Source of the DNA: Escherichia coli
GTDB lineage: Bacteria > Pseudomonadota > Gammaproteobacteria > Enterobacterales > Enterobacteriaceae
Reading direction: 5' to 3' (one strand)
DNA: 64,000 bases
Assembly: GCF_024700885.2 (NCBI RefSeq)
Contig: NZ_CP117014.1
Shown: piece by piece, positions 35,725 to 57,404 of the stretch
Position numbering within the stretch: the first letter of the stretch is position 1
Layout of the letters: the number at the start of each line of letters is the position of its first letter
Program-made: the position numbers and the translations under genes
Notes under the pieces: model-generated
Told to the model about the DNA's origin: nothing
What the model saw: only the letters and a program-made list of their open reading frames with translations
Database searches by the model: none

Positions 35725-36720
35725 ATGAGTGCAATAATCACCCCATATGTCGTAAATGAAACTGGTGTGGCTGTCTTTCCTGTAGATAAGCCCACCAGCA
35801 ATTACATCGGCGCAGGACGCCGTTTTCTTATATCCCCATTGCCGCGTGAACAGGCTGAAAACACCCCTGATGGTGTCGTTGACCTGAATTATTCACTGGT
35901 TGCCAACCAGTCACTGGCACCCTTTTTTCAAAGTGAGCGCGTATTTAACGCGTTAGGTGGTGAGGATTCTCTCGTTCACTGGGTTAGCACCAACATTCAC
36001 GATTGCCAGGTGCATGATAAGCGCGATTGCAGCCACCAGCTAACCACCCATTTCTATAACGGTTCTGCCGTTCGCCTGTGCTGGAAGCATGATGCGGAAT
36101 ACATGATGAAGGGATACGGCAAGCTGGAAGACCAACTGTCACTGAATCGCGCCAACTGGATTATGAACTGGGCTGCCAGCGAGTTAAAACTTCCGCCAGA
36201 TCGCGATCTGAGCATGGTTGAACTCACCTTTTGGGCCATTCGCCGGAATCTTAAAGACGAACTGCCTGATGAAGCTGGTCGCATTGCATTTTGTCAGCCA
36301 AAAACTGAAATCCCTACCGGCACTCTGAAAGAGTCGGATATTACTTGGGAGCATAGTACCCGCGAGCTGGTGGATATTTCCGCAGAGCAGATCGTCAATC
36401 TGTCCGTCGATGAAGATTCTGGCCTCCTATATATGCGCCGTCCAAAAACCTTACTCGGAAAAAGCCCGGCTTATCTCCGGTTTGTGGTGTCTCGCCCGTG
36501 TGTAGGCTGCGGCGGCAAGGTTAATCACCCATTCATGTACCGCGCCCGCTCGTTAAACGAACACGACCGCTGGACTGTTCCTCTTTGCGATGACTGCGCC
36601 AGAAGCGCAGAAAACGATGTCCGGGCATGGGAAAAAGCACATGGCATACGCCTTTACGTAGCCGCTAACCAGCTTTTCGACTTCGCCATTGAGCGCGGAG
36701 TGATCACGTTCAATAACTGA
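35725..36720 (+). CDS. Hypothetical protein with C-terminal Cys-cluster (331 aa)
   Basis: CVGCGG...CDDC near C-terminus. Confidence 0.4.
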   Translation: MSAIITPYVVNETGVAVFPVDKPTSNYIGAGRRFLISPLPREQAENTPDGVVDLNYSLVANQSLAPFFQSERVFNALGGEDSLVHWVSTNIHDCQVHDKRDCSHQLTTHFYNGSAVRLCWKHDAEYMMKGYGKLEDQLSLNRANWIMNWAASELKLPPDRDLSMVELTFWAIRRNLKDELPDEAGRIAFCQPKTEIPTGTLKESDITWEHSTRELVDISAEQIVNLSVDEDSGLLYMRRPKTLLGKSPAYLRFVVSRPCVGCGGKVNHPFMYRARSLNEHDRWTVPLCDDCARSAENDVRAWEKAHGIRLYVAANQLFDFAIERGVITFNN

Positions 36721-36733
36721 TGGGAGCAATGCA

Positions 36734-37027
36734 ATGAGTCAAGGTAATGGTGACGGAGCTGCAAAGTGCAGAATCTCCACTTGTTTGATTAATGACAAAA
36801 AAATAGAACCGTGCGCGGCGTTGGCACAATCTCTGGAGAAGGATGCTGAATACACGACGCGGAAAGGTCTGCTGAAATACAAAATCTATAACCATGAATT
36901 AATTCATTCACAAGACCTGATCATGCTGCGGTCTGGTGAATTTTCTAAATCGCCTATTCGAGTTTCATTTTGCCCATTCTGTGGTGAAAGTCTGAAAACG
37001 TGGGAAGCGGAGGCAACCAGTGAATAA
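36734..37027 (+). CDS. Small protein with C-terminal zinc-ribbon-like CPFCG (97 aa)
   Basis: ORF with Cys pairs. Confidence 0.35.
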   Translation: MSQGNGDGAAKCRISTCLINDKKIEPCAALAQSLEKDAEYTTRKGLLKYKIYNHELIHSQDLIMLRSGEFSKSPIRVSFCPFCGESLKTWEAEATSE

Positions 37028-37664
37028 CCGCTTTTACATGATGTGCTTGCGTGAAACTGTGGGTAATAACGCCTCATTCCATTGCCATAACGGCAATGGT
37101 TACAGTTCTGATATCGATCGCGCTCATATTTACACGCTGGAAGAAGCCCAAAAAGCCTGGAATTGTGGGCGAGATATCGATCAGCCTGTTTGTGCCGATA
37201 GTGTGGATGCAATGGCTGTGTGGCACGTTGATTGCCAGTACATCCCTACAGAAAGCCTGATTGAGTCAGATTGCACTGAGTATGTGGCCTACAAAAAAGG
37301 TAGCTGGAACGGCAACGATGTTTACTGGCTTCAACACGGTGGATTGCCAACAGATGACTTCAGTAAAGCGACCATCTTTAGCTTCGCCAACAAAAACGAA
37401 CCAGGAATAGTTTGGTTGCCATTTTCCATTGCTGATGCAGCAAAGCGCCGGACGTTCAATATCAATAACTTTAACCGCAGAACAATGGTTCAGGGCGCAG
37501 GTTTGGTCATGCCTGACTGGTTGAAAGAGCAGAACAGAAGAAAGAAGTCGCGAAGCGGGAAGGTGCGTTGGAATTGTCCGCATTGCGGAAAAATAACCTG
37601 GCAGTACAGCCCATATGATTTTGAAGGCTGTCGTGATTACAACTGTGAAGGATGGCGAGAATGA
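37020..37664 (+). CDS. Cys-rich hypothetical protein (214 aa)
   Basis: Multiple Cys/His pairs including CPHCG. Confidence 0.35.
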   Translation: MNNRFYMMCLRETVGNNASFHCHNGNGYSSDIDRAHIYTLEEAQKAWNCGRDIDQPVCADSVDAMAVWHVDCQYIPTESLIESDCTEYVAYKKGSWNGNDVYWLQHGGLPTDDFSKATIFSFANKNEPGIVWLPFSIADAAKRRTFNINNFNRRTMVQGAGLVMPDWLKEQNRRKKSRSGKVRWNCPHCGKITWQYSPYDFEGCRDYNCEGWRE

Positions 37665-38374
37665 CAATTGACTATCAGGTACTGCGTGAGGCGGCAGAAA
37701 AGGCAACACCAGACGAATGGGTCGCATTTATTTCGACGGATACTGGTACTTATGCGGTGCACACGCCCGGTGATGAACGATGTGAAGACGTTATCAAATG
37801 GACCGGCTTTGATGGACAGAAAAATGCAGAGAACAACGCTCGTTATGTTGCCGCGTTCAACCCAAAGGTTGCACTGGAGCTTCTTGGTGAAATTAAGCGC
37901 CTGGAGGACACAAATATTGATGCTATGTGTCGAATTGCAGAGCTTGAGACTAATCTCGCGGCGCTGGCGGCGGAGAATGAACTGGCTCGTAAGGCAGTTC
38001 AGGCATTCTGCGATGTTGTTGGCGACAACACCGAGGTTATCGCTGAGGAGGTTGGGCGAGATGGCGTTCTGGTTATTTTGGAGGCCATGAAGGCAACAGG
38101 AAATATGCCAGCCACCGATGCTTTTCTGGCTGAAATTCGTGCGGAAGCACGCAACGAGGGAGTTAACTATACCGCCAGCCGTCTTGCTGCTGCGTTCAAT
38201 CACGGATTTATCAATAAGTCTTTGCGTGAAGTTTTCGACGTTACACGCATGATTTTGTCAGCGAAAGAAGAGTTGGCTAATGAAGCGCATCCGATTGATG
38301 GCCTGTCTGGTGAATATGCGGAGAAATCCCTTGAAGAATGGGCGGAACAGATTCGCAAAGGAGCTGACAAGTGA
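37652..38374 (+). CDS. Ea22/Ead-like early-region protein
   Basis: N-terminal YQVLREAAEKAT and AAFNPKVALELL cassettes shared with 39309 paralog; coiled coil. Confidence 0.45.
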   Translation: MARMTIDYQVLREAAEKATPDEWVAFISTDTGTYAVHTPGDERCEDVIKWTGFDGQKNAENNARYVAAFNPKVALELLGEIKRLEDTNIDAMCRIAELETNLAALAAENELARKAVQAFCDVVGDNTEVIAEEVGRDGVLVILEAMKATGNMPATDAFLAEIRAEARNEGVNYTASRLAAAFNHGFINKSLREVFDVTRMILSAKEELANEAHPIDGLSGEYAEKSLEEWAEQIRKGADK

Positions 38375-38781
38375 AGAAGATGATTTTTATCGCGGCATTG
38401 TTGGTGAATATCCAACAAGTGCATGCTTCAGCAGCTATTGTAGCCTCTACCGCCGCGACTACGGCTGCTGTAGCTGCTGCGAACTCTGCGAATATCGCAA
38501 ACCAACAGGCACAGCGTGCTGCTAATGCATCAGCCAGCGTTCACTCAATCACCATTAAGAGCAGTAAGCAAAATCTGGGATTCATAACGTGCGGCACGCG
38601 TTCTAATGAAGCTGTAGGTTCACTTGGATGTACGGTATATGGGGGTAGTGAGAATAGAGAAATTCCATGGAAAACGTGGCCCGGATACGTTCTTGGCTCG
38701 AAGCTCCCGGCCAGTTATGAAGTAAACGCCGTATCGTTTGATCACTATAACGGCGTGGCAACGGTCTATTTTGCATATTGA
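38371..38781 (+). CDS. Secreted Ala-rich small protein (136 aa)
   Basis: Signal-like N-terminus then low-complexity Ala/Thr run. Confidence 0.35.
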   Translation: MKKMIFIAALLVNIQQVHASAAIVASTAATTAAVAAANSANIANQQAQRAANASASVHSITIKSSKQNLGFITCGTRSNEAVGSLGCTVYGGSENREIPWKTWPGYVLGSKLPASYEVNAVSFDHYNGVATVYFAY

Positions 38782-38788
38782 GGCCCGC

Positions 38789-39322
38789 ATGAAATTCTCC
38801 AAATTTTCTGAGTTGGTGAATCGTATTTTGTTGAATCGTATTTTGTCCAACAACCACAGCCATCGTCGCGATATGGATGTAACGATCGTTGTTCATTCGC
38901 CTGGCAGCATTGGTTCAACACCCTCAGTTGAGGTTCAGTCAATTCACGCTGGTTTTGATTGGGATTCCGGGAAAGTGCTGATTTTCCCAGCACAGCCACT
39001 GACCACTCTAACACCAGAACAGATTACTGATATTACTGATAGTGTGCGCAAAGGTCAGTCCTGGCACGCATATCAGGAATACAAGAAGCATAAAGAGCAG
39101 TTGGAAAAATTATCGATTGAACTTGATACCGCAAAACAGCGCATTGCAGAGCTGGAGAGCAATCGCGCGGCGCTGGCGGCGGAGCATGGTATTCAGATTG
39201 CAATAAATGAACTGCTTGCTCTGGCCCCGCGTCTGGATAAACGAGCGGTGGATGCACTCTCTGTGGCTGTGGAGCACCTGTGTAAACTGATTAAGAAGGA
39301 GGCAGTCAGTGAGCAAAATTAA
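38789..39322 (+). CDS. Ea22-like coiled-coil protein (start refined to ATG 38789)
   Basis: IAELESNRAALAAEHG coiled-coil cassette shared with paralogs. Confidence 0.4.
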   Translation: MKFSKFSELVNRILLNRILSNNHSHRRDMDVTIVVHSPGSIGSTPSVEVQSIHAGFDWDSGKVLIFPAQPLTTLTPEQITDITDSVRKGQSWHAYQEYKKHKEQLEKLSIELDTAKQRIAELESNRAALAAEHGIQIAINELLALAPRLDKRAVDALSVAVEHLCKLIKKEAVSEQN

Positions 39323-40064
39323 TTACCAGGCACTGCGTGAGGCGGCAGAGAAAGCAACGTGGGGAGACTGGGACTCATATAAACCACACCGTGGCGCACG
39401 TGGTTATAAGGTCCGACTAAGTGGTCAGGCCATTGCGCAACACGTTCTGAAAAACAACGCTGAATTTATTGCTGCCTTTAATCCAAAGGTTGCTTTGGCA
39501 TTACTGGATGAACTGGAAAGAAACCAGCAATACATCAAACGCCGCGACCAGAAGAACGAGGATATTGCTCTTACGGTTGGGAAGCTGAGAGTTGAGCTTG
39601 AGGAAGTAAAACAACACGCTGAAGAATTATCCGAAACCAAGGCTGTTCGTAACCAATGGCGGCCAGATATTTGCCCAATAACCGGACGTGCATTTTTCAT
39701 GTGGATTGAGCATCCAACATTGGGAAATGTGCCGACATATGGTGGCCCATTAGATAGTTACACCATTCCAACAAAGGACGGTGACGGTGAGTTTTCATGT
39801 GAGCGTTACGATCATGATTTTGGCGGTTGGGTAGAAAGCGAATGTCTTGGGTTATATCTGATTGATGATAGAGAACAATGCAGGGTCTACGAACTGGAGG
39901 AGCGCGTTAAGGAACTGGATGCTCGGGAAATATCGCTCCCGGAACGTAGCAGCATGCTTCATCGAACAGATTTTCACGATGATTACCAAACGGTAATGGC
40001 ATACAAAGTTTCTGAAGTCATCGATGCAATCCGCGCTACTGGCATTCGCATCAAAGGAGAGTGA
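39309..40064 (+). CDS. Ea22/Ead-like early-region protein
   Basis: N-terminal YQALREAAEKAT / AAFNPKVALALL cassettes. Confidence 0.45.
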   Translation: MSKINYQALREAAEKATWGDWDSYKPHRGARGYKVRLSGQAIAQHVLKNNAEFIAAFNPKVALALLDELERNQQYIKRRDQKNEDIALTVGKLRVELEEVKQHAEELSETKAVRNQWRPDICPITGRAFFMWIEHPTLGNVPTYGGPLDSYTIPTKDGDGEFSCERYDHDFGGWVESECLGLYLIDDREQCRVYELEERVKELDAREISLPERSSMLHRTDFHDDYQTVMAYKVSEVIDAIRATGIRIKGE

Positions 40065-40065
40065 G

Positions 40066-40476
40066 ATGAACGCTATAACCAAAGAACGTATCAAATTATT
40101 CATTAAAAATCCGCTTGATAACGGACTTACTCGTGGCGAACAAATGGAACTGGCACGAATTGCTCTGGCATCGCTGGAAGCAGAGGCAGTTATGTTCTGT
40201 ATATCAGGACAAAATGTAGATTCAGAAGAACATGTATCAACCAGCAAAGCGGTTGTTGATGCCTGGGTTGAAGAATGGAATCAGGTTGACGGAAGTCCTG
40301 GCGAACCACTGTACAAAACTATGCCACTCTACTATCACGCTGCCTTGCCAGCGCCGGTAGTGCCGGATGAAATGTATTGGCAGGATGCGCCAGTTGAAGG
40401 CAGCAGCAAAGCGGCTGCATACGCTACAGGCTGGAACGCCTGCCGCGCCGCTATGCTTCATGGGAAAGGAGAGTGA
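40066..40476 (+). CDS. Small early-region protein sharing N-terminal cassette with 40752 gene
   Basis: ITKERIKLFIKNPLDNGLTRGEQMELARIALASLEA near-duplicated at start of next large gene. Confidence 0.4.
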   Translation: MNAITKERIKLFIKNPLDNGLTRGEQMELARIALASLEAEAVMFCISGQNVDSEEHVSTSKAVVDAWVEEWNQVDGSPGEPLYKTMPLYYHAALPAPVVPDEMYWQDAPVEGSSKAAAYATGWNACRAAMLHGKGE

Positions 40477-40478
40477 TA

Positions 40479-40741
40479 TGGCAACTTTAACAAAAAAAGA
40501 ACGGGCATGGTTGAACGAATTACAGGACGTTCTTGATCGCTGTCCATCACCGAAAAAAATTGGTTTTTACACCATTGGCGATAAAAGCATTTACCTGTAT
40601 GACCTGCGCCGCATGGATGAAATCATGGAGACTCTTGATAATCGTTCGTCGATGGATTGGTGTGTTGCTGTTCATGATATGAATGCAGGGTTTGATGAAA
40701 AGATTTTGTTCCCCTCATCAGTTGAAAGCACTGCGGGTTAA
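40479..40741 (+). CDS. Small early-region protein (87 aa; start refined to ATG 40479)
   Basis: AGGAGAG RBS; track ORF extends upstream in overlap. Confidence 0.35.
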
Positions 40742-40751
40742 GGAGTAACAC

Positions 40752-42272
40752 ATGACCACTATTACCAAAGAACGTATTGAATTGTTCATTAAAAATCCGC
40801 TTGAAAACGGGCTTACCCGTGGTGAACAAATGGAACTGGCACGGATTGCGCTGGCATCGCTGGAAGCAGATCCAGTTAAACGAGTTAACTCAGATCAGAT
40901 GCGCCGAGTCTGCTTAGAAGCTAATCGCCATTTAGATAAATATGACGCGATGGCGAAAGAGGTAAATAAGTTGCTTGGACGCATCGCCCCGCCAGCGCCG
41001 GTAGTGCCGGAAGAAGCAACTCCGGAAAACGTAGAAATGCTCTCTGGCTATGTTTCCACGTACAAATTAACCGATAGCGAGCGCGATATTGCTGCCGAAA
41101 TATGGAACGCCTGCCGCACCGCCATGCTTCAGTCCGGAAACTTTCGGGAAAGCAAGAATTCGTCAACCAATAATTTTCGGGAAATCGCGGAAACGTCAAC
41201 CAACTATCCGGTAATTCCTAGTGAGGTGTTGTCAGCAATCCTGAAGTTTGCCAGAGTTCGTGCCGATTTCGATGATTTTGACGGTGACAGGCGAGGTATC
41301 GGTGATTGTCTGGATGAGGCCGAGCAAGAGCTTATCGTTACCATTAACAAATATGCCAGTCAGTTGGCAGCAGAACCGATAGCGACTAATGACGTTCGAG
41401 AGCAAACAGCCGTTCCGCCAATACAGGCTGATGTCGCGCAAGCAATTGAAAATCTCAAGCAGAAGTTAGTGGAATGCAATCGCTATAACTACTGCGCAGA
41501 TGCAGTTAAAGGCGTAGAGGATGCCAGCCGCGTCTTGGCACTCCAAAATCAAAATATGTCAGCACCGGTAACGCCGGAGGCCATTGAAAACGCAATTGAA
41601 TATATCCGCAGTATCGCTTTTCACATCGATGAAGACGATTACCACGGCAAGCATATTGCGTATTTCATGCGACAAGCATTGGCCTGGCTGGAAGGGCATT
41701 CATGCAGCGACGACAGGCTGGGTAAGGCCGACAATCAACCCGCATCTGGTAACCAGTCTGCCGAATCCAATCGCGGTAATGAGTGGACCGGCAATCCTGA
41801 TATTGATAACGCCATCATCATGCTCGACCGCATAGATACGGCGGAAAGTTGCGATGATGACCGTATTGAGGCCGTTAAGGCTGTGTTGCGTAGACTGGCA
41901 GGCAACTATCCGGATATTCCGGATAGTTCGGTGCCAGCGCCAGGAAAGGGCGTCACCGGTGAACGTATCCGCATTAAGCCGCATGTTTATCGCGAACTGG
42001 TTAACCGTCTCCACGATACAGCGATCAAGTGTGCTGGCACCCAGCAATTACGAGAAAGAATTAGCCGTGTTTTGGGCGACGTTATTACACCAGATCATCA
42101 TAAACAAGCCGAGAAAAGTGGCCTGGAAAGGTGTCGCCTTGAGGCGGCATTAAACATTAAGCCGGGGCATACGCTTGGCATTATTGATGCACTATTGGTT
42201 CATAAGATGGCCAGGGCTTTATTGCCGCTGGTGGCTGAAAAGCATGAGGTGGACCATGCCAACGAAAGCTGA
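40752..42272 (+). CDS. Large early-region protein (506 aa) with Ea22-type N-terminal cassette
   Basis: N-terminus duplicates 40066 gene; internal APPAPVVPEE linker also shared. Confidence 0.4.
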   Translation: MTTITKERIELFIKNPLENGLTRGEQMELARIALASLEADPVKRVNSDQMRRVCLEANRHLDKYDAMAKEVNKLLGRIAPPAPVVPEEATPENVEMLSGYVSTYKLTDSERDIAAEIWNACRTAMLQSGNFRESKNSSTNNFREIAETSTNYPVIPSEVLSAILKFARVRADFDDFDGDRRGIGDCLDEAEQELIVTINKYASQLAAEPIATNDVREQTAVPPIQADVAQAIENLKQKLVECNRYNYCADAVKGVEDASRVLALQNQNMSAPVTPEAIENAIEYIRSIAFHIDEDDYHGKHIAYFMRQALAWLEGHSCSDDRLGKADNQPASGNQSAESNRGNEWTGNPDIDNAIIMLDRIDTAESCDDDRIEAVKAVLRRLAGNYPDIPDSSVPAPGKGVTGERIRIKPHVYRELVNRLHDTAIKCAGTQQLRERISRVLGDVITPDHHKQAEKSGLERCRLEAALNIKPGHTLGIIDALLVHKMARALLPLVAEKHEVDHANES

Positions 42273-42540
42273 ATTACAGGTGCGCGTAGATGAGCTTGAA
42301 AAAGAGAACGCGAGCCTCAAAAAAATGCTGTCGCGGGCGGAAAGGGAATTATCAGGCAAATTATTGCCAGAAGAACTGCCACCAGCAGATATACCTGATC
42401 GAGTGTCCTGGTGGATGAAGTATTTCCGTGCACCGTGGGAGGCGTTTTGGTGCTACGACCATCGCAGATGGTGTGATGAGCTTGATAGCAGTTTCCCCTA
42501 TTTTGCAGAAGGGAACTCTTGCCCTGAATGTAGGCGTTAA
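42256..42540 (+). CDS. Coiled-coil / zinc-ribbon small protein, paralog A
   Basis: C-terminal W..PWE.F.C.DH..W.DELD.SFPYF...CP.C shared with next gene. Confidence 0.4.
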   Translation: MPTKAELQVRVDELEKENASLKKMLSRAERELSGKLLPEELPPADIPDRVSWWMKYFRAPWEAFWCYDHRRWCDELDSSFPYFAEGNSCPECRR

Positions 42541-42845
42541 TGATGACCGGCGAGCTTTATTTTAAAATGGCACGGGAGCGGCGTGTGCATCTGGATCGGA
42601 TATTTCATCTCCAGAAGAGAGTAGAAGAACTGGAACGTCGTCTGAACTGTTATCCTGTTGATATGGTGTCTGCAATACCGCCGATTCCAATAGAAATGCA
42701 GATCCGCCTATGGATGGAAGAATATGGAATGCCGTGGGAGATATTTTTCTGCTTCGACCATAAACAGTGGGTAGATGAGCTGGATAATAGTTTCCCATAT
42801 TTCACAGAGAACACATGCCCAGTATGCAGGAAGAACGGAATATGA
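42540..42845 (+). CDS. Coiled-coil / zinc-ribbon small protein, paralog B
   Basis: Tandem paralog of previous gene. Confidence 0.4.
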   Translation: MMTGELYFKMARERRVHLDRIFHLQKRVEELERRLNCYPVDMVSAIPPIPIEMQIRLWMEEYGMPWEIFFCFDHKQWVDELDNSFPYFTENTCPVCRKNGI

Positions 42846-43366
42846 CAAAATTTGGAAAGCTGGAAGCTCATTTGCTAACTCGCAACTACCGCCATGATAT
42901 ACACCCATATAGACAGTGGATCGATGAAAGCGAAGGAGTAGTTACATTCCCTCTCTACAGGTTTGATGGGATGTTGGCTGGGTATCAGACATATAGACCA
43001 GGTGCACCTAAGCAGCATAGCAATCCGAAGATGGCCCGGTATTTCACGCGATCACACGGCAGACAGTTACTTTGGGGAACCTATCTTCCTTTAAAAGATG
43101 GCCCAATATGGATAACTGAGTCTATTTTTAAGAGCGCAGCTGTACACAACGCGGGCGGCAATTCGTGGGCGCTGTTAGGTTCAACTTTCTCCGCAGGATT
43201 ACGCCGTCAACTTGCGATGCTGCCGTATGACTTTCGCGTAATAGGTGACAATGATGCGGCTGGTGAATCACTTGTGAAGTCTTTCGGAAAAGGTTTTGTG
43301 GCCCCGGATCTTGACGAGCTACAACCACATGAAGTGTCTCATTTGATTTTTAGCCATAGCCAATAA
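42815..43366 (+). CDS. Hypothetical protein with Toprim-like acidic motif (start uncertain)
   Basis: ...ITESIFKSAAV...VIGDNDAAGE... resembles a Toprim E / DxD arrangement. Confidence 0.3.
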   Translation: MPSMQEERNMTKFGKLEAHLLTRNYRHDIHPYRQWIDESEGVVTFPLYRFDGMLAGYQTYRPGAPKQHSNPKMARYFTRSHGRQLLWGTYLPLKDGPIWITESIFKSAAVHNAGGNSWALLGSTFSAGLRRQLAMLPYDFRVIGDNDAAGESLVKSFGKGFVAPDLDELQPHEVSHLIFSHSQ

Positions 43367-43574
43367 GCATCTCTCCCCTTTGAGGTCACAATTAGTGGCC
43401 TTAAACAATGTGTTTTCTACCTCGATTTAGCCTTTATTATCGTTTTGCATTTCTCTAATCCGGGCAACGAGGTTACGCTGATTCGTTGGTGATGAATAGT
43501 AGCAAAGCGCACAAAATCATCTGCGGTGGTTGATGTACGTAACGCGTTTGCACCAAATGTGTCTCTTTAATGTA

Positions 43575-43594
43575 TACTGTATAAATGAACAGTA
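43575..43594. promoter_or_regulatory. LexA (SOS) box upstream of humD
   Basis: TACTGTATAAATGAACAGTA = CTGT-N8-ACAG consensus, 20 bp upstream of ATG. Confidence 0.7.
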
Positions 43595-43613
43595 TTATTG
43601 AGGTGAAAACGCT

Positions 43614-44003
43614 ATGGGCTTCCCTTCTCCTGCGGCGGACTATGTTGAAAGCCGAATTTCTCTTGATCAGCAACTAATCAGGCATCCATCAGCGACATAC
43701 TTCATGCGGGCGGCAGACAGCCATCACCGTGAGGGAATATTGCAGGGTGCTTTGCTGGTGGTTGATTCTTCGCTTACTCCAGTTGATGGTTCGCTGCTTG
43801 TGTGCGCTATGGAGGGAGAATATCGCGTAAAAAGATACCGGAAGTATCCGCGCCAGCACCTGGAGGATTTAAGCACCGGGAAGAAAGAGGCGTTACCAGT
43901 AGATGACGATGGTTACACGGGTAGTAATGCTGTTTTTGGTGTGATCACCCACATTATCAATGACGCCAGGGGCGGTGAATTTGATGATAGTCCTGCTATA
44001 TGA
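43614..44003 (+). CDS. humD: UmuD-prime-like S24 peptidase-fold protein (P1 HumD-like)
   Basis: 129 aa aligning with UmuD C-terminal domain (...LLVVDSS...GEYRVKRY...FGVITHII); SOS box upstream. Confidence 0.65.
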   Translation: MGFPSPAADYVESRISLDQQLIRHPSATYFMRAADSHHREGILQGALLVVDSSLTPVDGSLLVCAMEGEYRVKRYRKYPRQHLEDLSTGKKEALPVDDDGYTGSNAVFGVITHIINDARGGEFDDSPAI

Positions 44004-44137
44004 TTTGTTTTCAGAGAAACCATAGAGAGGCATGACTGGATCTATATCGCCCTGGCCATTTAAATGATTCCTCCCATTAGACGCGGTTACTCACTTGAAG
44101 ATAAGATGAGGTTATAATTCTCTTTTTAGGTACGCGA

Positions 44138-44560
44138 ATGAGTTCGTCTGCTTTTGTCACTGTTGTCACTGGAGTAAGCGTTTTTGTCCTAGGTCGACTC
44201 ATCATCAAGGGGGTTGAGTCTTACATTTCATTCAAGGAACAGTTGGGGGAAATATCGCATCTGTTATTGTCTAACCAAGCAAAGCTATCGAATCCCCGCT
44301 CTGACTTAAAACAAGAAATCATCCATGATTTGAAAGATGCGGCAGCACAGTTACGGGTGAAGTACGAACTATTACCTTTCTATATCAAAATGTTACACAT
44401 CGGTTTTCGCCTTGTTCCATCAGAAACTGAAATTCGTAAAGCGGCGCAAGAATTGAATCTGATAGCCTCGATACATGATGGTAAAACCGGAGAGCTGCCA
44501 TATGAGCACATAGCCAAGATTGGATTACTGCTCAGAATTCCAACCACTTATTCTGCTTAA
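44138..44560 (+). CDS. Membrane-anchored hypothetical protein (140 aa)
   Basis: N-terminal TM helix (SAFVTVVTGVSVFVLGRLII); AT-rich gene between humD and phd. Confidence 0.4.
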   Translation: MSSSAFVTVVTGVSVFVLGRLIIKGVESYISFKEQLGEISHLLLSNQAKLSNPRSDLKQEIIHDLKDAAAQLRVKYELLPFYIKMLHIGFRLVPSETEIRKAAQELNLIASIHDGKTGELPYEHIAKIGLLLRIPTTYSA

Positions 44561-44668
44561 TCCCAGCAATTGCAAGACTGCATCTCGAGGATTTAAGGCA
44601 CCAAGAAGTGGTATTCAGCATCATTAAAACCTATAATTGCGTACACATAACGAGCACACGAGGTGTTT

Positions 44669-44890
44669 ATGCAATCCATTAACTTCCGTACCGCGCGCGG
44701 CAACCTTTCTGAAGTGCTCAACAATGTTGAAGCCGGGGAAGAGGTTGAAATCACCCGCAGAGGCCGTGAGCCAGCAGTAATTGTCAGCAAGGCTACTTTT
44801 GAAGCCTACAAAAAAGCGGCGCTGGATGCCGAATTTGCATCCCTGTTTGACACCCTGGACTCCACCAACAAGGAACTGGTTAACCGATAA
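44669..44890 (+). CDS. phd: Phd antitoxin
   Basis: 73 aa from [13 protein letters not shown]...; recognised as P1 Phd; stop overlaps doc start. Confidence 0.85.
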
Positions 44891-45270
44891 TGAGGCATAT
44901 ATCACCGGAAGAACTTATTGCGCTTCATGATGCGAATATAAGCCGCTACGGCGGCCTGCCGGGAATGTCAGATCCGGGTAGGGCAGAGGCCATTATCGGG
45001 AGAGTTCAGGCCAGAGTTGCCTACGAAGAGATCACCGACCTTTTCGAAGTCTCCGCCACCTACCTGGTGGCTACGGCGAGAGGGCATATATTCAATGATG
45101 CCAATAAGCGTACCGCGCTAAACAGTGCGCTGCTATTTCTACGCCGTAACGGTATACAGGTATATGATGATCCCGTGCTGGTGGAGCTTGCAGTGGGGGC
45201 TGCAACTGGTGAAATCCCCGTATCTTCAGTAGCGAAAAAACTACGTGAACTATATGGTTCCAATATTTGA
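44890..45270 (+). CDS. doc: Doc toxin (Fic-fold kinase)
   Basis: 126 aa with HIFNDANKR Fic motif; P1 Doc-like. Confidence 0.85.
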
Positions 45271-45305
45271 AAAGAAGCCCGCTCAACCAGGCGGGCTTCT
45301 TACTA

Positions 45306-46400
45306 TCACTCAATGATTTTTTCTGCTGTCAGCCAGCTAATTTCTTGCCTGTCTTTCGGCGGTTTTAGCATGTGGGCGTATTCAGCGACATTCTCCCACG
45401 GAATTGTTTTTGCCCACTCAACGATAGCATTGTGATCTGCAGTGAAGAGTGGAATGGTGTGCGATTTCAACCATTCTAATGTCGTGACGCCATGTTTTTT
45501 GGCGTGGTGCTGCGCATGATGCCGGGCTATCACTCGTAATGGTATTGTCCATTCACTACCATCAGGCATCGAAAAGCGCATTGTCTTCGGCATATCTGAT
45601 TCAAGAACAGCCTCCCTAATACCAGGGAACTCACCAAGAATCATACGACGATAGTCATCACTATTTCGCCCGCCATACCTTTCGGCAAAATGATCAAGAT
45701 ATTCTTGGGTAATAAATGGTGAATCCTCCGCACTCAGCTTAATGGCTTTATATACACCACTCGGATTATCTTCAGCTAAAGCACGTCCATGATGTGAATC
45801 ATAAAAAAAGCCTATTTCCTCTGGTGACGGAATTGAAGTGAGCAATATGCGTGAATCACCACTAGTCATGCTTGCCCACACAATGCTGTATGCCCGATCG
45901 CTGATATGTGCGGAATCCACAATAATGAATAAAAGATGGTCGGCGTAGTGACCTGCAATGCTATCTTCATAGTTAAGGCGGAAGTTACAAAAGCACATTC
46001 CCCAAAATTCATTGAACATCAGACCGCTATCACCGACCTTAAAATACTCAATGATAAAAGGTTGTTTTTTCAGCAATGCCTCCCAACATTGCCACACATA
46101 TGCAACAATTCCTCTTTTGCAAACATTTGATTTTGGATAAACAATTACTGTCCGGGAATCAGGATACATAATCGTATAAAGGGTACTAATAACAGCAAGC
46201 ACTTGCGGTCGTCCGATCCCATACGGAGTGGTGACAGTAGCTTTTGCATTATTGGGCTGTATAGCTTCAACAATTTGTTGTTGCTGGTGGCTTAAATCAA
46301 TATCAAACAATTCTTTTGCTGCCAGTACCCAATTGTCTTTATATTTCTCCACCAGCGACAGCCAGCGCGGATCTTTATAAATATTGCTCTTAGTCGCCAT
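45306..46400 (-). CDS. PacB-like terminase large-subunit paralog with degenerate Walker motifs (365 aa)
   Basis: Collinear with PacB N-terminal half (SHQQQQI, DSHHGRA, ESPF, YGGR) but Walker A GHGTGKSS replaced by PYGIGRPQ and Walker B LDEAS by VDSAH; start ATG 46400. Confidence 0.5.
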   Translation of the reverse strand: MATKSNIYKDPRWLSLVEKYKDNWVLAAKELFDIDLSHQQQQIVEAIQPNNAKATVTTPYGIGRPQVLAVISTLYTIMYPDSRTVIVYPKSNVCKRGIVAYVWQCWEALLKKQPFIIEYFKVGDSGLMFNEFWGMCFCNFRLNYEDSIAGHYADHLLFIIVDSAHISDRAYSIVWASMTSGDSRILLTSIPSPEEIGFFYDSHHGRALAEDNPSGVYKAIKLSAEDSPFITQEYLDHFAERYGGRNSDDYRRMILGEFPGIREAVLESDMPKTMRFSMPDGSEWTIPLRVIARHHAQHHAKKHGVTTLEWLKSHTIPLFTADHNAIVEWAKTIPWENVAEYAHMLKPPKDRQEISWLTAEKIIE

Positions 46401-47618: not shown

Positions 47619-48113
47619 TTATAACTTTTCGTACTGAAGCGGTGAACGCTTAATTTCAAAGTGGCCTTCCGATGTGCTACCAAAGCCACCAGCACCACGC
47701 TCCGTTTCGTTGAGTTCCTCAACCTCGACTAGTGAGACTTGTTCAACACGCTCAAAAATTCCTTGCATGACAGCCATTCCAGGCTTGAGACAAACGCCTT
47801 CCCCGCCGGGATCAGTAATCAGTTTTGCCATGATTTCGCCGCGATAATCGGAGTCGATAATTCCTACGCAGTTAGCCAGGCGAGTATGTTTTTTGCAGCC
47901 CAATCCTGATCGCGGATAGAGTTTCAGACACCAGCCGGGCGGGATCTCCATAGCCAGTCCGGTATACACCCACCAGCTTGAGGAAATTGCACCATTGCTA
48001 TCGACGCATGGTTTTATTTCAACAGCCTCAAAATCCATCGCCGCCGATCCGGAGGTGGCATAAGCTGGAAGTTTTGCTGCCGGATGTAGGCGTTTCACTT
48101 TTACGTAAATCAT
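47619..48113 (-). CDS. dut: dUTP diphosphatase
   Basis: Motifs AYATSGSA, PRSGLG, GIIDSDYRGE, GAGGFGSTS. Confidence 0.8.
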   Translation of the reverse strand: MIYVKVKRLHPAAKLPAYATSGSAAMDFEAVEIKPCVDSNGAISSSWWVYTGLAMEIPPGWCLKLYPRSGLGCKKHTRLANCVGIIDSDYRGEIMAKLITDPGGEGVCLKPGMAVMQGIFERVEQVSLVEVEELNETERGAGGFGSTSEGHFEIKRSPLQYEKL

Positions 48114-48592
48114 TGTTTTTTAGCTCTCTGCGTGAAGGTGTAAACCCGACGTTTGATATGTGGAACGGTAGGAACAGGAAGACAGGAACTTTCAATAACT
48201 CCTTGCTCATCCAGCGATCGCACCGCCCGCAAGAACTGCGACGTGTCGCCGCCAAACTGGCGGGCATAGGTGCTGCCGTTATGAAGTATTTGAGCTATTA
48301 CCCGAGTTTTTGTCTGGCTGTCACGATATGCGAATAGCCGCACGGCCTCTTCTGGCGCAATCGCTAACTGATAGCCTTTCCCGGCACGGTGTCGAATGAA
48401 TCCATGCGCCAGTAGGTTTTTGAGTTCGTTACGAGTGCGAACAGATCCGTAACCCAGGAAGTGTGGATTGATAACGACTGGCTTAAACCATTCCGTAGGT
48501 GCTTTAGCTAATAGAGCTAACAGCTTCCCGGATAATTCTGGATAGGAAGACGGGTAACAATTCAGAGATGGGTAATAAGTTTTCACCGACAC
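48110..48592 (-). CDS. Hypothetical protein (160 aa)
   Basis: 4-nt overlap with dut. Confidence 0.4.
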   Translation of the reverse strand: MSVKTYYPSLNCYPSSYPELSGKLLALLAKAPTEWFKPVVINPHFLGYGSVRTRNELKNLLAHGFIRHRAGKGYQLAIAPEEAVRLFAYRDSQTKTRVIAQILHNGSTYARQFGGDTSQFLRAVRSLDEQGVIESSCLPVPTVPHIKRRVYTFTQRAKKQ

Positions 48593-48927
48593 CCCCTTGC
48601 AGGATATCGACCGGCATTAGTATCCGGTGCAATAAAGCCGGTAGTGGGGCGAGTGAAAGCGAGATTAATCTTCTCGACCATAGTGCGATAATTTTCCTGA
48701 TAGTGGGCCAGGAGTTTTTCGGCGGCAATGATGGTTACTTTCCGGACGTAGCTTTCTGCTTCCTCCAGATTTCGCCAGTTTTTTTCGAGGGTAAACACAG
48801 GGACGGCCTCAAGCCCGGTCATGATGCCGAACACAACGACAGCATGACTGTTCTTAACACCAGCGGCGAAGGTTACGGTGTAACCATCCACCTTGAAGCG
48901 TCTTGATTCCGTGATTTGACTCTGCAA
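48583..48927 (-). CDS. Hypothetical protein (114 aa)
   Basis: First gene downstream of recombinase. Confidence 0.4.
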   Translation of the reverse strand: MQSQITESRRFKVDGYTVTFAAGVKNSHAVVVFGIMTGLEAVPVFTLEKNWRNLEEAESYVRKVTIIAAEKLLAHYQENYRTMVEKINLAFTRPTTGFIAPDTNAGRYPARGCR

Positions 48928-49000
48928 AGCACCCTCCTAAATAGGCGAGGGTACTTTACAGCAAAGGCGTTAATCTAAAAAGATGTGTTAGAAATTTAAT

Positions 49001-50029
49001 TTACGAATCCATCAGGCGGCTATTAGCCCCCACAGACACGCCGCCACGGCGAAGATACCGCATAAGTGTTTCCGGTTTCTTCCAGGTTCCTTCCTGCATG
49101 ATCTCCACCATAGACACCTGCTTTTCAGCCATATCAATAGCGGCCCCGACGCGTGCACTATGCCCGGTCCACGTCCGGTATCTTCCTTTGTTTGGCGTAG
49201 CATCTCTTTTATTCAGCAACACCCAGGCGTCGCTGAATATTTTCTCCATTGCAGGTGCAGTAAGGGGCGTTGTCGTGATCCTGGCCTTATTGCTACGGTG
49301 TATCGGCGGGAACAGCACTGCGTCAGGATGTTCGCGAAGCCCGGAAACATCCAGCCAGTCATTCAGCACAGCGGTAGTGCGACGGGAAAGCACCTTATCA
49401 AGCCCGGCGGCGGTCGTTATTGTCTTCGTGTGTGAAATATGTAGCGTGACAGTGTCACCTGTTTGATCCAGATCTCCTACACGAATACGCGAGATTTCCG
49501 ACATACGCATCAGCGTATTGTATGCAACAAAGAGAAAAGCCCGGTTGCGCAGGTCCACCAGCCGTTCTGACCTGGACAACAGGACGTCGAGCAGTTTCAG
49601 ATCGTCCCACCGAAGCGGTATAGCCTGGCCTGTTCGTTCGCCTTTTTCAGTTGCCGCTTCGCGCCGGATGCGCCGCATAGCCAGAGAAACACTTTTATCA
49701 TCCGAAAGTGGCGGAAGGCCACAATGCGAAAGCAGCATATTCAGCATGGCGTAGTGCTTATCAATGGTGGTCGAAGCCAGATCGGCATCATGCAGCTGAA
49801 GAAAATACTCGCGGGCCATTTCTGGTGAGATCGGAAACCAGGCAAGCTGGCGAGCGTGACACCAGCGCGCCCATGAATGAAACACCAACCGGAGGTCGCG
49901 CAGAGTATTCGGCGCATAAGCCCCCTGGTCATTCATGAACCGCATAAAGTTTTCTGCAGCCTCCTGGTACTCTTTGCCAATGTTGCGCAGAAAACCACCG
50001 GAGCTGCCAGAGATAATTAATTCACTCAT
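49001..50029 (-). CDS. Cre-like tyrosine site-specific recombinase
   Basis: 342 aa collinear with P1 Cre (…WTGHSARVGAA.DMA……IMQ.G.W……Y.R), conserved R/H-x-x-R/W/Y; lox-like site ~150 bp upstream. Confidence 0.8.
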   Translation of the reverse strand: MSELIISGSSGGFLRNIGKEYQEAAENFMRFMNDQGAYAPNTLRDLRLVFHSWARWCHARQLAWFPISPEMAREYFLQLHDADLASTTIDKHYAMLNMLLSHCGLPPLSDDKSVSLAMRRIRREAATEKGERTGQAIPLRWDDLKLLDVLLSRSERLVDLRNRAFLFVAYNTLMRMSEISRIRVGDLDQTGDTVTLHISHTKTITTAAGLDKVLSRRTTAVLNDWLDVSGLREHPDAVLFPPIHRSNKARITTTPLTAPAMEKIFSDAWVLLNKRDATPNKGRYRTWTGHSARVGAAIDMAEKQVSMVEIMQEGTWKKPETLMRYLRRGGVSVGANSRLMDS

Positions 50030-50180
50030 GAAACTATTTAACCTCTATATACAGATAACGCTACGCGAAAAATATAAAAATGACAGGGTAGCTATAAGTT
50101 AATTTTCAAGATTCAAGCCTTTGATTCGAGGCGCGTATTTTCAGTGATGTCAATACTGATCATCTACCCATAATTATAGC

Positions 50181-50214
50181 CTAACTTTAAATAATGCCAA
50201 TTATTTAAAGTTAT
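50181..50214. other. lox-like recombination site: 13-bp inverted arms with 8-bp asymmetric spacer
   Basis: CTAACTTTAAATA-ATGCCAAT-TATTTAAAGTTAT; outer AACTT/AAGTTAT shared with loxP. Confidence 0.6.
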
Positions 50215-50395
50215 AAAATGCCGATTTTTTTTAATCCATCATAGATTGATGATGACCAGTAACACGTTGCCTTCATGGTCTTTAATTTGCGAAGTGTGGT
50301 TTCTACGGTTGGTTTTCTAAAATTGATGACAAAAAATCACAGTTCGATCCTTTACTCACTCTGTTATTCGACATAAATTTGTCATAGTAATTTTA

Positions 50396-50411
50396 TGTTA
50401 GAAAACTAAAT
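50396..50411 (+). promoter_or_regulatory. Dispersed motif copy TGTTAGAAAACTAAAT in promoter of gene at 50424
   Basis: Read directly, ~13 bp upstream of ATG. Confidence 0.45.
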
Positions 50412-50423
50412 CGAGTAGGAATA

Positions 50424-51461
50424 ATGAGTAAGAAGTCGATCGAGAAAGAGTACAAACGGTTCCTGCAAACCGCTGAACGGTGGAAAGAGCTGGTGGTCGC
50501 AAACTCTGTTTTCCATGATACCAGTTATGCTGGCGAGGAATTCCGCCATGTTGCATTAACGCATGACCAAAACATATTAGAAGAAGCTGAAAAATGTCTT
50601 GCTGAATGGAAAGCCTTCGTTGACATGTGCCGCGATGCCGACGGCAAAGCGTCGAACATTGTTGAGTCTGTATATTCTCCGATCCCATTCATCATTGAGG
50701 ACACCAATCAAAGCACGCATGTCGTTGTGCAAAGCGCTACAACAACACGTACATTTACACGTGAACAATTGCTAAAAAAATACGACAAAATCATAAAGAA
50801 AAGCCTTAAAAATAGGGTTTTTTCTCAAATCGTAGGTGATCTTGAAGAAGAACAGCGCTTCTTTGAAGCTGAGCCTGAAGGCGAGATCTACCGGGCGCGT
50901 AAAGAGGCATATACAGATGTTGTGCTGACAACAAACATCGAAGGCAGCAATGCCCTTTCTCGCTTTAGAGTTGGCGCACATGGTGCATTGGTTTTCGCAA
51001 GACTACCGAAGACAACGATCCCCGTTGTCAATAATGTTGGTGAACGCCGGAGCATTACAATTTATTCTGGCGTCGAATCGGTACCTTGCAGCCTTCTCGG
51101 CGATTTTAACTTATATCGTGTTCGTGACCTGGAAAAACACCAGCCAAGCTATGTTGCGAAGTCGTACATCTTAAGGAACATCGATATTCGCAATGAAAGC
51201 CTTAAGCAGAAATCCGCTAAGATGCTGGAGGATGCCGATCCGGCTATTCGCCATATCATTGAGCGTAAGATACGTACATCACGTGAAGCAATGGCAAGGC
51301 TGGATAAAATGGATCTGGAATTGTTAGACGTAATGATGGCCTCTGGAGACGACCTGACCGGCATTAAACTGAATGAAGCTCGTAAAAAATACGGCAAAGC
51401 AATCGAAGAACGTTACGGATACACATTCCCCCAAACGCAGTACGCCGCGAAGCTCTGGTAA
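50424..51461 (+). CDS. Hypothetical protein in the c1-equivalent position (345 aa); candidate regulator
   Basis: Convergent with pacB and adjacent to lox-like site, as for c1 in P1; motif copy in own promoter; no recognisable P1 C1 similarity. Confidence 0.4.
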   Translation: MSKKSIEKEYKRFLQTAERWKELVVANSVFHDTSYAGEEFRHVALTHDQNILEEAEKCLAEWKAFVDMCRDADGKASNIVESVYSPIPFIIEDTNQSTHVVVQSATTTRTFTREQLLKKYDKIIKKSLKNRVFSQIVGDLEEEQRFFEAEPEGEIYRARKEAYTDVVLTTNIEGSNALSRFRVGAHGALVFARLPKTTIPVVNNVGERRSITIYSGVESVPCSLLGDFNLYRVRDLEKHQPSYVAKSYILRNIDIRNESLKQKSAKMLEDADPAIRHIIERKIRTSREAMARLDKMDLELLDVMMASGDDLTGIKLNEARKKYGKAIEERYGYTFPQTQYAAKLW

Positions 51462-51468
51462 TCACAAC

Positions 51469-51490
51469 CGGCCCCGCATCGCGGGGCTTT
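51469..51490. terminator. Bidirectional hairpin terminator between convergent genes
   Basis: GCCCCGC-atc-GCGGGGC followed by TTTATATAT. Confidence 0.55.
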
Positions 51491-52997
51491 ATATATCCAG
51501 ATCCGGCATTTCGATATCCGCCAGAACCTGATCTCGGAAAGTTGCCATTTCGGCACCAATATCTTCATTAGCAGGCACATAGTCCACCAGCATAGTGAAG
51601 CAGTAGGTATCCCATCGGTCAGGCGATTTGATGTTTAGCTTTTGCCGCATGTGCTCTTTGCGCATCATCGCCATTTTCCCTTCTTCATTCAGTAAAAAGG
51701 GGATTTTTGACGCTTGCTCTGCCGTTTTAGGGTCACTGTCTATCCGCATACGCCCTGACTTTATGGCATCACGCGCCATAATGTTTGCGTAGGCACGCTG
51801 ATTAACAAATCGCTCCCTGTCTTTGTTCGCAAACATGGGTTTTCCCCACCGAATACGTACCGGGTTCGCACCACGACGCACCAACTGCGCACACGTATCA
51901 GAACCAAAACCATCAGCATCAACCGCGATTGTTATATTCGGGTATTTTTCCGGCGTACATTCGTTATATATGAAGTCAGCAAAGGCCAATGGGTCCATAG
52001 TGCCAGGCATCTCCATTACCTTAAAGTTAACAACGCGCCGCTTATCCCTGTGACCTGATACCTTGCAGATGTTGAGGACCGACTTATCTCGCCCATTACC
52101 AACGTCAGCCGTTGCCACCCATCCCCAGTTTTTCTCCAACAACACCTTGCGGCGAGCAGAGCGATCGCATTCATCACGACCAAGCAAATAGCCGTTAATT
52201 TCTCGTGGGAACTGACCAAGCACCTTGACCATGTACTCAATAGAATCGCGCCCACCATATTCCAGAAGCTTCTCCTTGATGAATTGTGGTGTGACGAACG
52301 GTGATTCTTCCGAGTTAAGAACAATTGCTGTCCAGATCCCTTTCGGGTTGTCTGGGGTTTTTGCTCGAGAATGGTGCGAATCGTAGAAATAACCACTTGG
52401 CCTTGTTGGCTGGGATAGCATCAACATCCGGTTATCTTCTTCAGTAAGAGCACCGGTCATTACGCCGATCGCCTTATCAGATATACCAGATGCTTCATCC
52501 AGAATTAGAAGCAAATGTGCCGCGTGTTCCCCCGCCAGCGCTTCTTCGTTGCCGAGTCGATAACCTTTGCAGAGAACTTCCCAAATCCCCTTACGGGAGC
52601 GCTCATAAAACATGGTGTCAGAGAGGACAAAATAGGTCTGCAACCACCCATGACGCTTAACTGCATTCGCCCAATACTGTTTAACGTATTTGAATACGCC
52701 TGTTTTTACCTGGCCTATCTTGTTAGCAACAATGATGACACGGGCATCGGGGAACAGGATCATAAAAATCAACAGCAACATCGCGGTAAGGGACGACTTC
52801 CCCGTTCCGTGTCCGGACGTGACGGTCGTCCTACTCCCCGTTTCCTGCACTGACTGAATGATCTGCTGCTGCTGGTGGGAGGGGAACATCCCAAAAATAT
52901 CGACTACAGCCTGGGTAAAGTTGTAGCGGTATTTGATTACCATATCGCGCCAGCGTGGATCGCTGGTGACGCATTTAATCTTGCGCCCGCCAGCCAT
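51489..52997 (-). CDS. pacB: Terminase large subunit (PacB-like)
   Basis: Walker A GHGTGKSS, Walker B LLLILDEASG; 502 aa; start overlaps pacA stop. Confidence 0.8.
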   Translation of the reverse strand: MAGGRKIKCVTSDPRWRDMVIKYRYNFTQAVVDIFGMFPSHQQQQIIQSVQETGSRTTVTSGHGTGKSSLTAMLLLIFMILFPDARVIIVANKIGQVKTGVFKYVKQYWANAVKRHGWLQTYFVLSDTMFYERSRKGIWEVLCKGYRLGNEEALAGEHAAHLLLILDEASGISDKAIGVMTGALTEEDNRMLMLSQPTRPSGYFYDSHHSRAKTPDNPKGIWTAIVLNSEESPFVTPQFIKEKLLEYGGRDSIEYMVKVLGQFPREINGYLLGRDECDRSARRKVLLEKNWGWVATADVGNGRDKSVLNICKVSGHRDKRRVVNFKVMEMPGTMDPLAFADFIYNECTPEKYPNITIAVDADGFGSDTCAQLVRRGANPVRIRWGKPMFANKDRERFVNQRAYANIMARDAIKSGRMRIDSDPKTAEQASKIPFLLNEEGKMAMMRKEHMRQKLNIKSPDRWDTYCFTMLVDYVPANEDIGAEMATFRDQVLADIEMPDLDI

Positions 52998-54361
52998 TAA
53001 TCATCCTCCGGCGGTTCTATCGCGATATCATCATCTCCGGCGTCATACCCTGCATCAGATGCATCATAATCACCGTAAATTTCAGCCGTTGCCGAAGGGT
53101 CAATATCCAGCTCTTCGTCGTTGGCCTCGAATTCTCCAGCTTTACGCTCGCCATTGCGGTCGTAATCTCCGCACCCCAATTCTTCAACAATGGTTGCCAC
53201 ATCCGCCCGGCGCTCTGCCAGCCATTGCGGATGGTTAGCCTGAAGCGTTGCAAACTCCCTTGCCTCTTTGTCCAGCTGTTCATCATCAACATCATTGACG
53301 TCAGAAACAGGTGGTTCGAGAAGAGTGATAGCTTTCGCCGCGCGCGCCGCGAGGATAGCCGGGACGCTGACACCCTGGCGCTCGATGTATTCAGCAACAC
53401 CGATATCATCCAGTTCCTCGCGCTCACGCATACGTATAGCGGCGGCGATAACTCTGGCTGCGCGTGCGTCAGCGCCAATGCGATATTCAATCTCTTTGCC
53501 ACGCTGTTCGGCCTGTAGGCGTGCTAATTCGAGTTTTTCTCTGGCCTCAGCCTCTTTGAATGCTTGCTGGCGAGCGCTCTGACGAAGCTTTTCATCCCCC
53601 TGTCGCAGCTTTTGTTCGGACTGATATATAGCTGCCAACCTACTGATAAAATCATTCATGTAGTAGGCCGCGTCACTGATTAGACCGAGAAGGCGCTGCC
53701 CAGGGTGCATTCCTTCTGGCTCTTTATCGCCCAAGGCGTCTATTTCCGCCTGTAGACGTTCGGCCTCCTGATCAACAATGCTTTGATACTGAAGTGCGCG
53801 CTCTTGCGCCATTTGAATTGCTAACCGCAGGTGTTCTTCTGCGCCGTTCTTCATCATATCGCGAGCCACATTCGTAGTTGGCAATGTGGCACGCTGCACA
53901 GCACCGTCAGGGATCATTGCAGAAGATCCCTCAATTTTTGGGGCGTTTTTATCTTCTTCGGGGATCATTTTCGCCATTTTTTCGCGCAATGATCTCCTGA
54001 CAGATTCTTTTATCTCATTGTTATTATTTGAATTATTTTCATGATCCGAAGTTTTCTTTCTCGGCATACTTCGGAAAGAACCTGCGCCCTGCGAATTGTC
54101 AATTTCTGTAAATTTTGTTTTTTCTGCACCCTCTTCCAGCTTTTTTGTTGCTCTTCCCGCCCGTTTTTTTTCAGGTGATTTGGTGCTTTTTTTTGTTGTC
54201 TTTACCTGCGACCGCACCTCATTTTTTTTCATATTGAGATGCTTTCTGGCTGTATTGAAGCTAAGGCCATGCTCCTCACAGTATTCCTTTACAGTGATCC
54301 CTTTTTCTTCACGCAACGCTATAAAGCGGGCGCGGTGCTCCTCCCAATTAACCAGACTCAT
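52997..54361 (-). CDS. pacA: Terminase small subunit (PacA-like) with N-terminal HTH
   Basis: N-terminal ...KEYCEEHGLSFNTARKHL HTH; acidic C-terminus; internal GATC cluster. Confidence 0.7.
   Translation of the reverse strand: MSLVNWEEHRARFIALREEKGITVKEYCEEHGLSFNTARKHLNMKKNEVRSQVKTTKKSTKSPEKKRAGRATKKLEEGAEKTKFTEIDNSQGAGSFRSMPRKKTSDHENNSNNNNEIKESVRRSLREKMAKMIPEEDKNAPKIEGSSAMIPDGAVQRATLPTTNVARDMMKNGAEEHLRLAIQMAQERALQYQSIVDQEAERLQAEIDALGDKEPEGMHPGQRLLGLISDAAYYMNDFISRLAAIYQSEQKLRQGDEKLRQSARQQAFKEAEAREKLELARLQAEQRGKEIEYRIGADARAARVIAAAIRMREREELDDIGVAEYIERQGVSVPAILAARAAKAITLLEPPVSDVNDVDDEQLDKEAREFATLQANHPQWLAERRADVATIVEELGCGDYDRNGERKAGEFEANDEELDIDPSATAEIYGDYDASDAGYDAGDDDIAIEPPEDD
53912..54046. other. 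Candidate pac site: cluster of five GATC (Dam) sites within pacA
   Basis: GATC at 53912, 53925, 53963, 53991, 54043 (~0.5 expected by chance); GGGATCATT duplicated. Confidence 0.4.
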
Positions 54362-54750
54362 AAAGCAACACCACGCTTTTTAACGGCGGCATTCCACAGC
54401 TTATTCGCCATGTCCACCAGCTCTCGTTGCTCTTTTCGCGCCTGTTCGACTGATTTCCTGCTACAGTTTTTAACCAGTAAACTGCCATATTCAGGGGTTC
54501 GCCCACGCACCTTGAACTGATATCCGTTCAGGCCATGCAACCAGTATTTTCGTGGGTAAACACGATCATCAAGCTCACAGATTGCCCTGCTTGAACGAAC
54601 AAAATGACGAATGATGTTAGTTACACTTACTCGTGAAACATGGAGATGAGGGTATTTTTCTTTGGCGAGAGTGGTAATTTCAGTGACTGTCAGATAGCAG
54701 TCAGCCCTGATCATGATATCCGCAATTTCTGCGCTGCTGATTTGTTCCAT
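54358..54750 (-). CDS. Small protein immediately upstream of pacA (Lpa-position gene; putative late activator)
   Basis: 130 aa, 4-nt overlap with pacA start; assignment by synteny with P1 lpa only. Confidence 0.4.
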   Translation of the reverse strand: MEQISSAEIADIMIRADCYLTVTEITTLAKEKYPHLHVSRVSVTNIIRHFVRSSRAICELDDRVYPRKYWLHGLNGYQFKVRGRTPEYGSLLVKNCSRKSVEQARKEQRELVDMANKLWNAAVKKRGVAL

Positions 54751-57400: not shown

Positions 57401-57404
57401 AATT

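Follow-up and report, generated by a model that had tools for sequence, protein, structure and literature searches.

A predicted LexA operator, identical to the annotated site of phage P1, directly precedes the humD gene of a phage-plasmid in Escherichia coli

In Escherichia coli, the self-cleavage of LexA and the part played by UmuC are established knowledge of the SOS regulon, and the operator of umuD works via promoter occlusion. HumD of phage P1, studied by McLenigan et al. in 1999, reportedly complements UmuD' in mutagenesis and binds both UmuC and RecA filaments, and its poor expression is said to have been noted in the same work. In other sources, HumD has been described as a pre-activated UmuD' (PMC7092418) and humD as LexA-regulated (PMC9603915); P1 lytic growth does not need humD (PMC10695390), and Ronayne 2016 (PMC4713147) confined its RT-qPCR of humD to thermal induction, without SOS, and mentions a LexA site at coi and not at humD. 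We found no report of a direct LexA footprint or of SOS induction of humD in the accessible literature, the primary P1 papers lying outside this search. The operator itself is already known from the P1 annotation of Lobocka et al. of 2004, where a protein_bind feature of NC_005856 (87545..87564) is labelled 'LexA binding site in the regulatory region of lxr and humD'. Stand-alone, pre-truncated umuD'-like genes preceded by a strong LexA box are likewise present in the phage-plasmids phiKO2 (gp23, beside the dinI-like gp22) and N15 (gp26), and in the phiKO2 record a lexA binding site is entered before the UmuD'-like gene.

The locus described here lies in a window of 64,000 nucleotides (64 kb) of E. 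coli DNA (contig NZ_CP117014.1 of assembly GCF_024700885.2), and its humD region matches P1, P7, SJ46, D6 and 654 plasmids with 84-98% identity. The first-pass annotation had taken the gene to be UmuD-prime-like, and this assignment is borne out by matches of the product to Pfam PF00717 (Peptidase_S24), to phrog_811 ('UmuD-like') and, with 213.8 bits where the cut-off is 120 and a coverage of 1-128 of 129, to NF051876, the NCBIfam equivalog for the 'HumD family translesion DNA polymerase'. HumD residues 2-118 align to residues 1-114 of UmuD' (1umu) and to residues 25-136 of UmuD (8gmt), which places HumD residue 2 at UmuD Gly25, the first residue of UmuD'; the protein is without the N-terminal arm and without the Cys24-Gly25 cleavage site and, given the alignment of residue 2 with Gly25, is made already shortened. 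No cognate umuC was found downstream of humD, the next gene encoding a 140-aa protein (phrog_7512) and being followed by phd/doc. The same annotation had placed a CTGT-N8-ACAG site 20 bp before the gene, called it a consensus LexA box and put the gene under the host SOS response. We read the 20-mer on the plus strand at exactly the same position (Table 1), with the ATG beginning 20 bp past the last base of the box, i.e. after a gap of 19 nt. The word consensus is slightly generous: the arms match, but against the 20-mer consensus TACTG(TA)5CAGTA with its CTGT-N8-ACAG core the box has 17/20 matches, all three mismatches lying in the central spacer.

Table 1. Positions of the predicted and annotated elements around humD, numbered from the first letter of the window
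Feature	Position	Strand	Basis or remark
Hairpin, possible terminator insulating humD	43379..43405	+	-13.8 kcal/mol, z = -2.86; terminator-like match
Candidate -35, TTGCAC (19-nt spacer) or TGCACC (18-nt spacer)	43548..43554	+	Weak, 3/6 matches; relaxed scan
Candidate -10 of a humD promoter, TATACT	43573..43578	+	Shares its last 4 nt with the start of the box; relaxed scan; inferred
LexA operator (SOS box), predicted	43575..43594	.	TACTGTATAAATGAACAGTA, arms TACTGT and ACAGTA
Shine-Dalgarno sequence, GAGGTG	43600..43605	+	8 nt before the ATG; kept in the P1 alignment
humD, 129-aa UmuD'-like protein, already shortened	43614..44003	+	ORF, PF00717, phrog_811, NF051876

Taken by itself, the loose CTGT-N8-ACAG pattern would allow the box to be a chance AT-rich palindrome unrelated to LexA, as it is expected 0.70 times per window, occurs once in this one and turned up at least once in 51 of 100 shuffles; with a count at chance level, the loose pattern alone is not significant. 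The full-length motif gives a different picture, since only one 20-mer of the window comes within three mismatches of the consensus TACTGTATATATATACAGTA and none does in 100 dinucleotide shuffles. To grade the predicted strength of the box, weights of the heterology index (HI) were solved from the 140 E. coli K-12 sequence/HI pairs of PSOSP Table S1 (PMC12527982). The recovered Lewis-type matrix is palindromic and fits these pairs exactly (rmse 1e-5), and it assigns the window box an HI of 4.52. Validated LexA sites of E. coli mostly have an HI below ~13, and four of the listed values are those of what we take to be umuDC (2.77), recA (4.31), sulA (4.65) and polB (12.09), so that on the same scale the box falls in the same range as the operators of recA and sulA. 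None of 200 shuffled windows reached an HI of 4.52, the lowest being 6.28. A second LexA site, for example of the P1 coi type, was sought across the window and none was found below HI 13.95, the score of the runner-up among the CTG-N10-CAG sites of the 64 kb and also the median best score of the 200 shuffled windows. With an HI of 4.52 against 13.95 for the next site and no shuffle below 6.28, the box is predicted to be a strong LexA site and the sole such site in the window. Together with its identity to the annotated P1 site and the presence of boxes before humD-like genes of distant phages with unrelated flanks (see below), the shuffles and the HI effectively refute the reading as a chance palindrome. 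A 66-aa minus-strand ORF that overlaps the box (43473-43673) was rejected as spurious, as it overlaps the humD start and is without family match or promoter; an Rfam scan of 42000-46000 gave sub-threshold chance matches only.

The box is identical to the P1 protein_bind site in 20/20 positions and amounts to the rediscovery of a feature already annotated; as both the principle and the exact operator have been part of the P1 annotation since 2004, our finding confirms existing knowledge, and what is new here is local detail only, namely the absence of lxr and a probable promoter overlapping the box. The spacing of 19 nt to the humD ATG is that of P1, the Shine-Dalgarno sequence and ~110 bp of upstream DNA are nearly identical, and the two HumD proteins are 95% identical. 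Unlike P1, in which a divergent lxr ('LexA regulated function') shares the operator with humD, the window has no divergent lxr at this place; homology to P1 begins only at 43463, past the lxr start codon, and a co-directional toprim/primase-fragment gene and a hairpin stand there instead. The predicted PhumD of P1, annotated ~440 bp upstream and within lxr, belongs to a region that is absent from the window. With lxr missing, humD is the only adjacent gene on which the operator could act. The window was searched for the P1 C1 operator consensus ATTGCTCTAATAAATTT, three mismatches being allowed, and gave no match and no sign of co-regulation by C1. A D6-type c1/pac region lies within the window (~47800-55000), and the absence of C1 operators is consistent with a different immunity specificity.

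The loss of lxr raises the reading that the box is a relic of P1-type lxr-humD control, its true target being gone and its regulatory role with it. In addition to the annotation of the P1 site as shared with lxr and the start of P1 homology only at 43463, one may note that the phiKO2 box, too, faces a divergent dinI-like gene. Against this, no leftward promoter-like hexamer pair was found near the window box in a relaxed scan of the minus strand, D6, N15, HK639, the Hafnia and Pantoea phages and the window itself all keep a strong box at about 14-19 nt although they have no divergent gene, and the arms of the box are nearly invariant while adjacent bases drift. We regard the relic reading as very improbable.

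This invariance was seen in a close set of 84 loci, comprising 80 IMG/VR loci (HumD identity of at least 91%), P1, D6, a plasmid and the window, all of which (84/84) carry CTGT-N8-ACAG; in the 83 of them with tabulated spacing, the box lies 16-19 nt from the ATG, and the 14 box variants among the close loci all have an HI of 1.4-5.6. Computed from 44 distinct 90-mers anchored on the box (92 loci), the entropy is 0.04 bit in the CTGT arm and 0.08 in the ACAG arm vs. 0.93 in the center of the box and 1.15-1.24 in the flanks, a contrast that overstates the number of independent events because related loci are not independent phylogenetically. No such weakness affects the argument based on unrelated flanks. 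In the lineage of loci L079-L083 and CMS-2020a, the DNA on both sides of the box is unrelated, yet TACTGTATGTGTATACAGTA is kept. Likewise, a box with an HI of 2.7-10.9, usually at 14-17 nt, lies upstream of every one of 10 umuD'-like genes from distant phages (44-92% identical; N15 gp26, phiKO2 gp23, and those of HK639, HK140, an Enterobacter phage, APC_JM3.2, Aeromonas, Hafnia and Pantoea phages and CMS-2020a), within unrelated flanking DNA. Arms retained within unrelated flanks are what selection for LexA binding would predict.

Comparison with individual systems shows how far the arrangement in the window is shared. The E. coli K-12 umuDC operator (TACTGTATATAAAAACAGTA, HI 2.77) is of the same box type and lies 19 nt before the umuD ATG, as in the window, and its left arm overlaps the -10 region, as we propose for humD; the window box is somewhat weaker, and whereas umuD is full-length, needs RecA-mediated cleavage and has umuC next to it, humD is shortened and without umuC. 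The proteins of phiKO2 and N15, which begin MGFPSPA... (with a GTG start codon in phiKO2), are 67-69% identical to the window HumD, with unrelated flanks and spacings of 14 and 44 nt, and the divergent dinI-like gene that faces the phiKO2 box has no counterpart at the window box. In the phiKO2 record (AY374448, our locus L085), the annotated lexA site occupies 355-375 and a better palindromic box, TACTGTATGCATATACAGTA (HI 2.82), directly precedes it (337-356); this may mean two neighboring LexA sites or an offset annotation. In HK140 (JQ086370, our locus L087), 262 nt separate the umuD'-like gene from a strong box (119-138, HI 5.96) that a divergent dinI-like gene faces from the other side; an extra 79-aa ORF stands between this box and the umuD'-like gene, pointing to an operon of two genes under LexA control.

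Overall, D6 comes closest to the window, with ~96% identity over 51% of 25 kb. Its UmuD-like orf108 product is 99% identical to the window HumD and the same 140-aa gene follows, while its box (TACTGTATGAATAAACAGTA, HI 2.9), at a distance of 18 nt to the ATG, falls within a truncated hot ORF and carries no annotation in the D6 record. Homology shared by D6 and the window starts at 43543, just upstream of the candidate -35. Upstream of humD, D6 has a hot fragment, the plasmid pRHB04-C06_3 a PHD-like gene, and the window a 183-aa toprim/DNA-primase fragment (42815-43366, plus strand; phrog_849, profile positions 143-333 of 435). Given that the upstream genes differ between P1, D6, pRHB04-C06_3 and the window, we conclude that the operator and approximately the first 30 bp of upstream DNA travel with humD, and that the DNA beyond is exchangeable.

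As for a promoter on which LexA could act, a standard sigma-70 scan of 43300-44200 found none. A relaxed hexamer scan gave the -10 candidate of Table 1 with its two possible -35 partners, plus a TGTATA-16-TATTAT pair that we consider implausible, as its start would fall within the Shine-Dalgarno sequence. TATACT occupies the candidate -10 position in 81/92 related loci, and it is accompanied by a good -35 in the D6 lineage (TTCACA-18-TATACT, 10/12 matches for the pair) as well as in the L079 lineage with its unrelated flanks (TTCAAA-17-TATACT, 9/12 matches).

With the operator identical to that of P1, its predicted affinity, its uniqueness in the window, its spacing and its conservation, the first-pass claim of host SOS (LexA) control of humD finds support in silico. 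We put at roughly 0.87 the probability that the 20-mer is an Escherichia-type LexA operator that would keep the phage-plasmid humD off in undamaged cells. The most likely mechanism, as judged from the layout of the sequence, is occlusion by LexA of a weak promoter whose -10 overlaps the box, with relief upon DNA damage. The humD promoter would be a weak sigma-70 promoter with its TATACT overlapping the left arm; a -10 at this position would set the transcription start near 43585, inside the box, from which we infer that bound LexA would exclude RNA polymerase, a LexA dimer on the box thus blocking the polymerase in umuDC-like geometry. DNA damage would lead to RecA-ssDNA filaments, these to self-cleavage of LexA, and this to a freed humD promoter. 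HumD would then be produced in the activated UmuD' form, bypassing the RecA-mediated cleavage that delays host UmuD, and would join host UmuC, itself SOS-induced, in a translesion polymerase; the HumD-UmuC part of this scheme leans on established SOS biology and on the 1999 work of McLenigan et al.

One may also picture the box as acting mainly as a roadblock or attenuator of read-through from the tightly packed plus-strand gene array that precedes humD (35725-43366), with humD being transcribed from an upstream promoter only once LexA is removed. This array ends in the hairpin of Table 1 and leaves a 247-nt gap before humD, an arrangement in favor of the operator reading; the assignment of the hairpin as a terminator is tentative given its weak U-tract, and it might leak. 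The local promoter is weak, and the P1 annotators, too, put PhumD far upstream of the box. However, the box stands beside TATACT despite differing upstream genes (lxr, the hot fragment, the PHD-like gene, toprim and tail genes), indicating that it does not depend on one upstream operon; good -35/-10 pairs are present in the D6 and L079 lineages; and the E. coli umuD operator of the same geometry acts by promoter occlusion. Since the local hexamers are conserved and the upstream contexts vary, a roadblock need not be invoked, and we hold it to be unlikely compared with occlusion of a local promoter.

Other features of the neighborhood were recorded. The 140-aa ORF between humD and phd (44138-44560, plus strand) has a hydrophobic N-terminal helix and matches neither Pfam nor NCBIfam; D6 has it too (orf109). 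It may be co-regulated with humD, as no terminator was found between the two by scan and folding, but the gene is preceded by a perfect TATAAT of its own (44113-18) and occurs in no more than 5/94 fetched humD loci. The phd/doc toxin-antitoxin pair lies at 44663-45270 (plus strand), as in P1 and D6, and the ORF finder begins phd at a GTG two codons ahead of the Phd ATG. Within the upstream array, two tandem paralogous ORFs (42175-42540 and 42540-42845, plus strand; 121 and 101 aa, both phrog_3797) overlap by one base and have in common a C-terminal ...SFPYF...CPxCR motif (zinc-ribbon-like CxxC). A 506-aa ORF (40752-42272, plus strand) is without a Pfam match and has hits to many PHROG families along its length (phrog_60, 14306, 21459 and others), so that it resembles a mosaic of Ea22-like modules. 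At 56279-57573, the minus strand carries a cluster of five tRNA genes (Met-CAT, Ser-TGA, Thr-TGT, Tyr-GTA and Arg-TCT).

A further difference between the window and P1 concerns the candidate -10 itself, which reads TATACT in the window and TGTACT in the P1 reference alone (NC_005856; positions 2611-2616 of our locus L001), the critical second base differing. We speculate, with considerable doubt, that wild P1/D6-like phage-plasmids have an intact LexA-controlled humD promoter (TATACT) and that the laboratory P1 reference alone carries an A to G change, making it a humD hypomorph. If TATACT is the real -10, such a hypomorph would fit the reportedly poor expression of HumD and the annotation of PhumD 440 bp away. 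If true, SOS-induced, pre-activated UmuD' from wild phage-plasmids could affect host mutagenesis beyond the P1-based expectation.

More broadly, the box would place a pre-activated UmuD' borne by a phage-plasmid under the SOS switch of the host, so that damaged lysogens could assemble an error-prone polymerase without the usual delay imposed by RecA-dependent cleavage of UmuD. A match to the humD region is present in 803 of 5426 complete E. coli genomes (~15%), and such control would bear on stress-induced mutagenesis across the many strains of E. coli and Salmonella with P1/D6-like plasmids.
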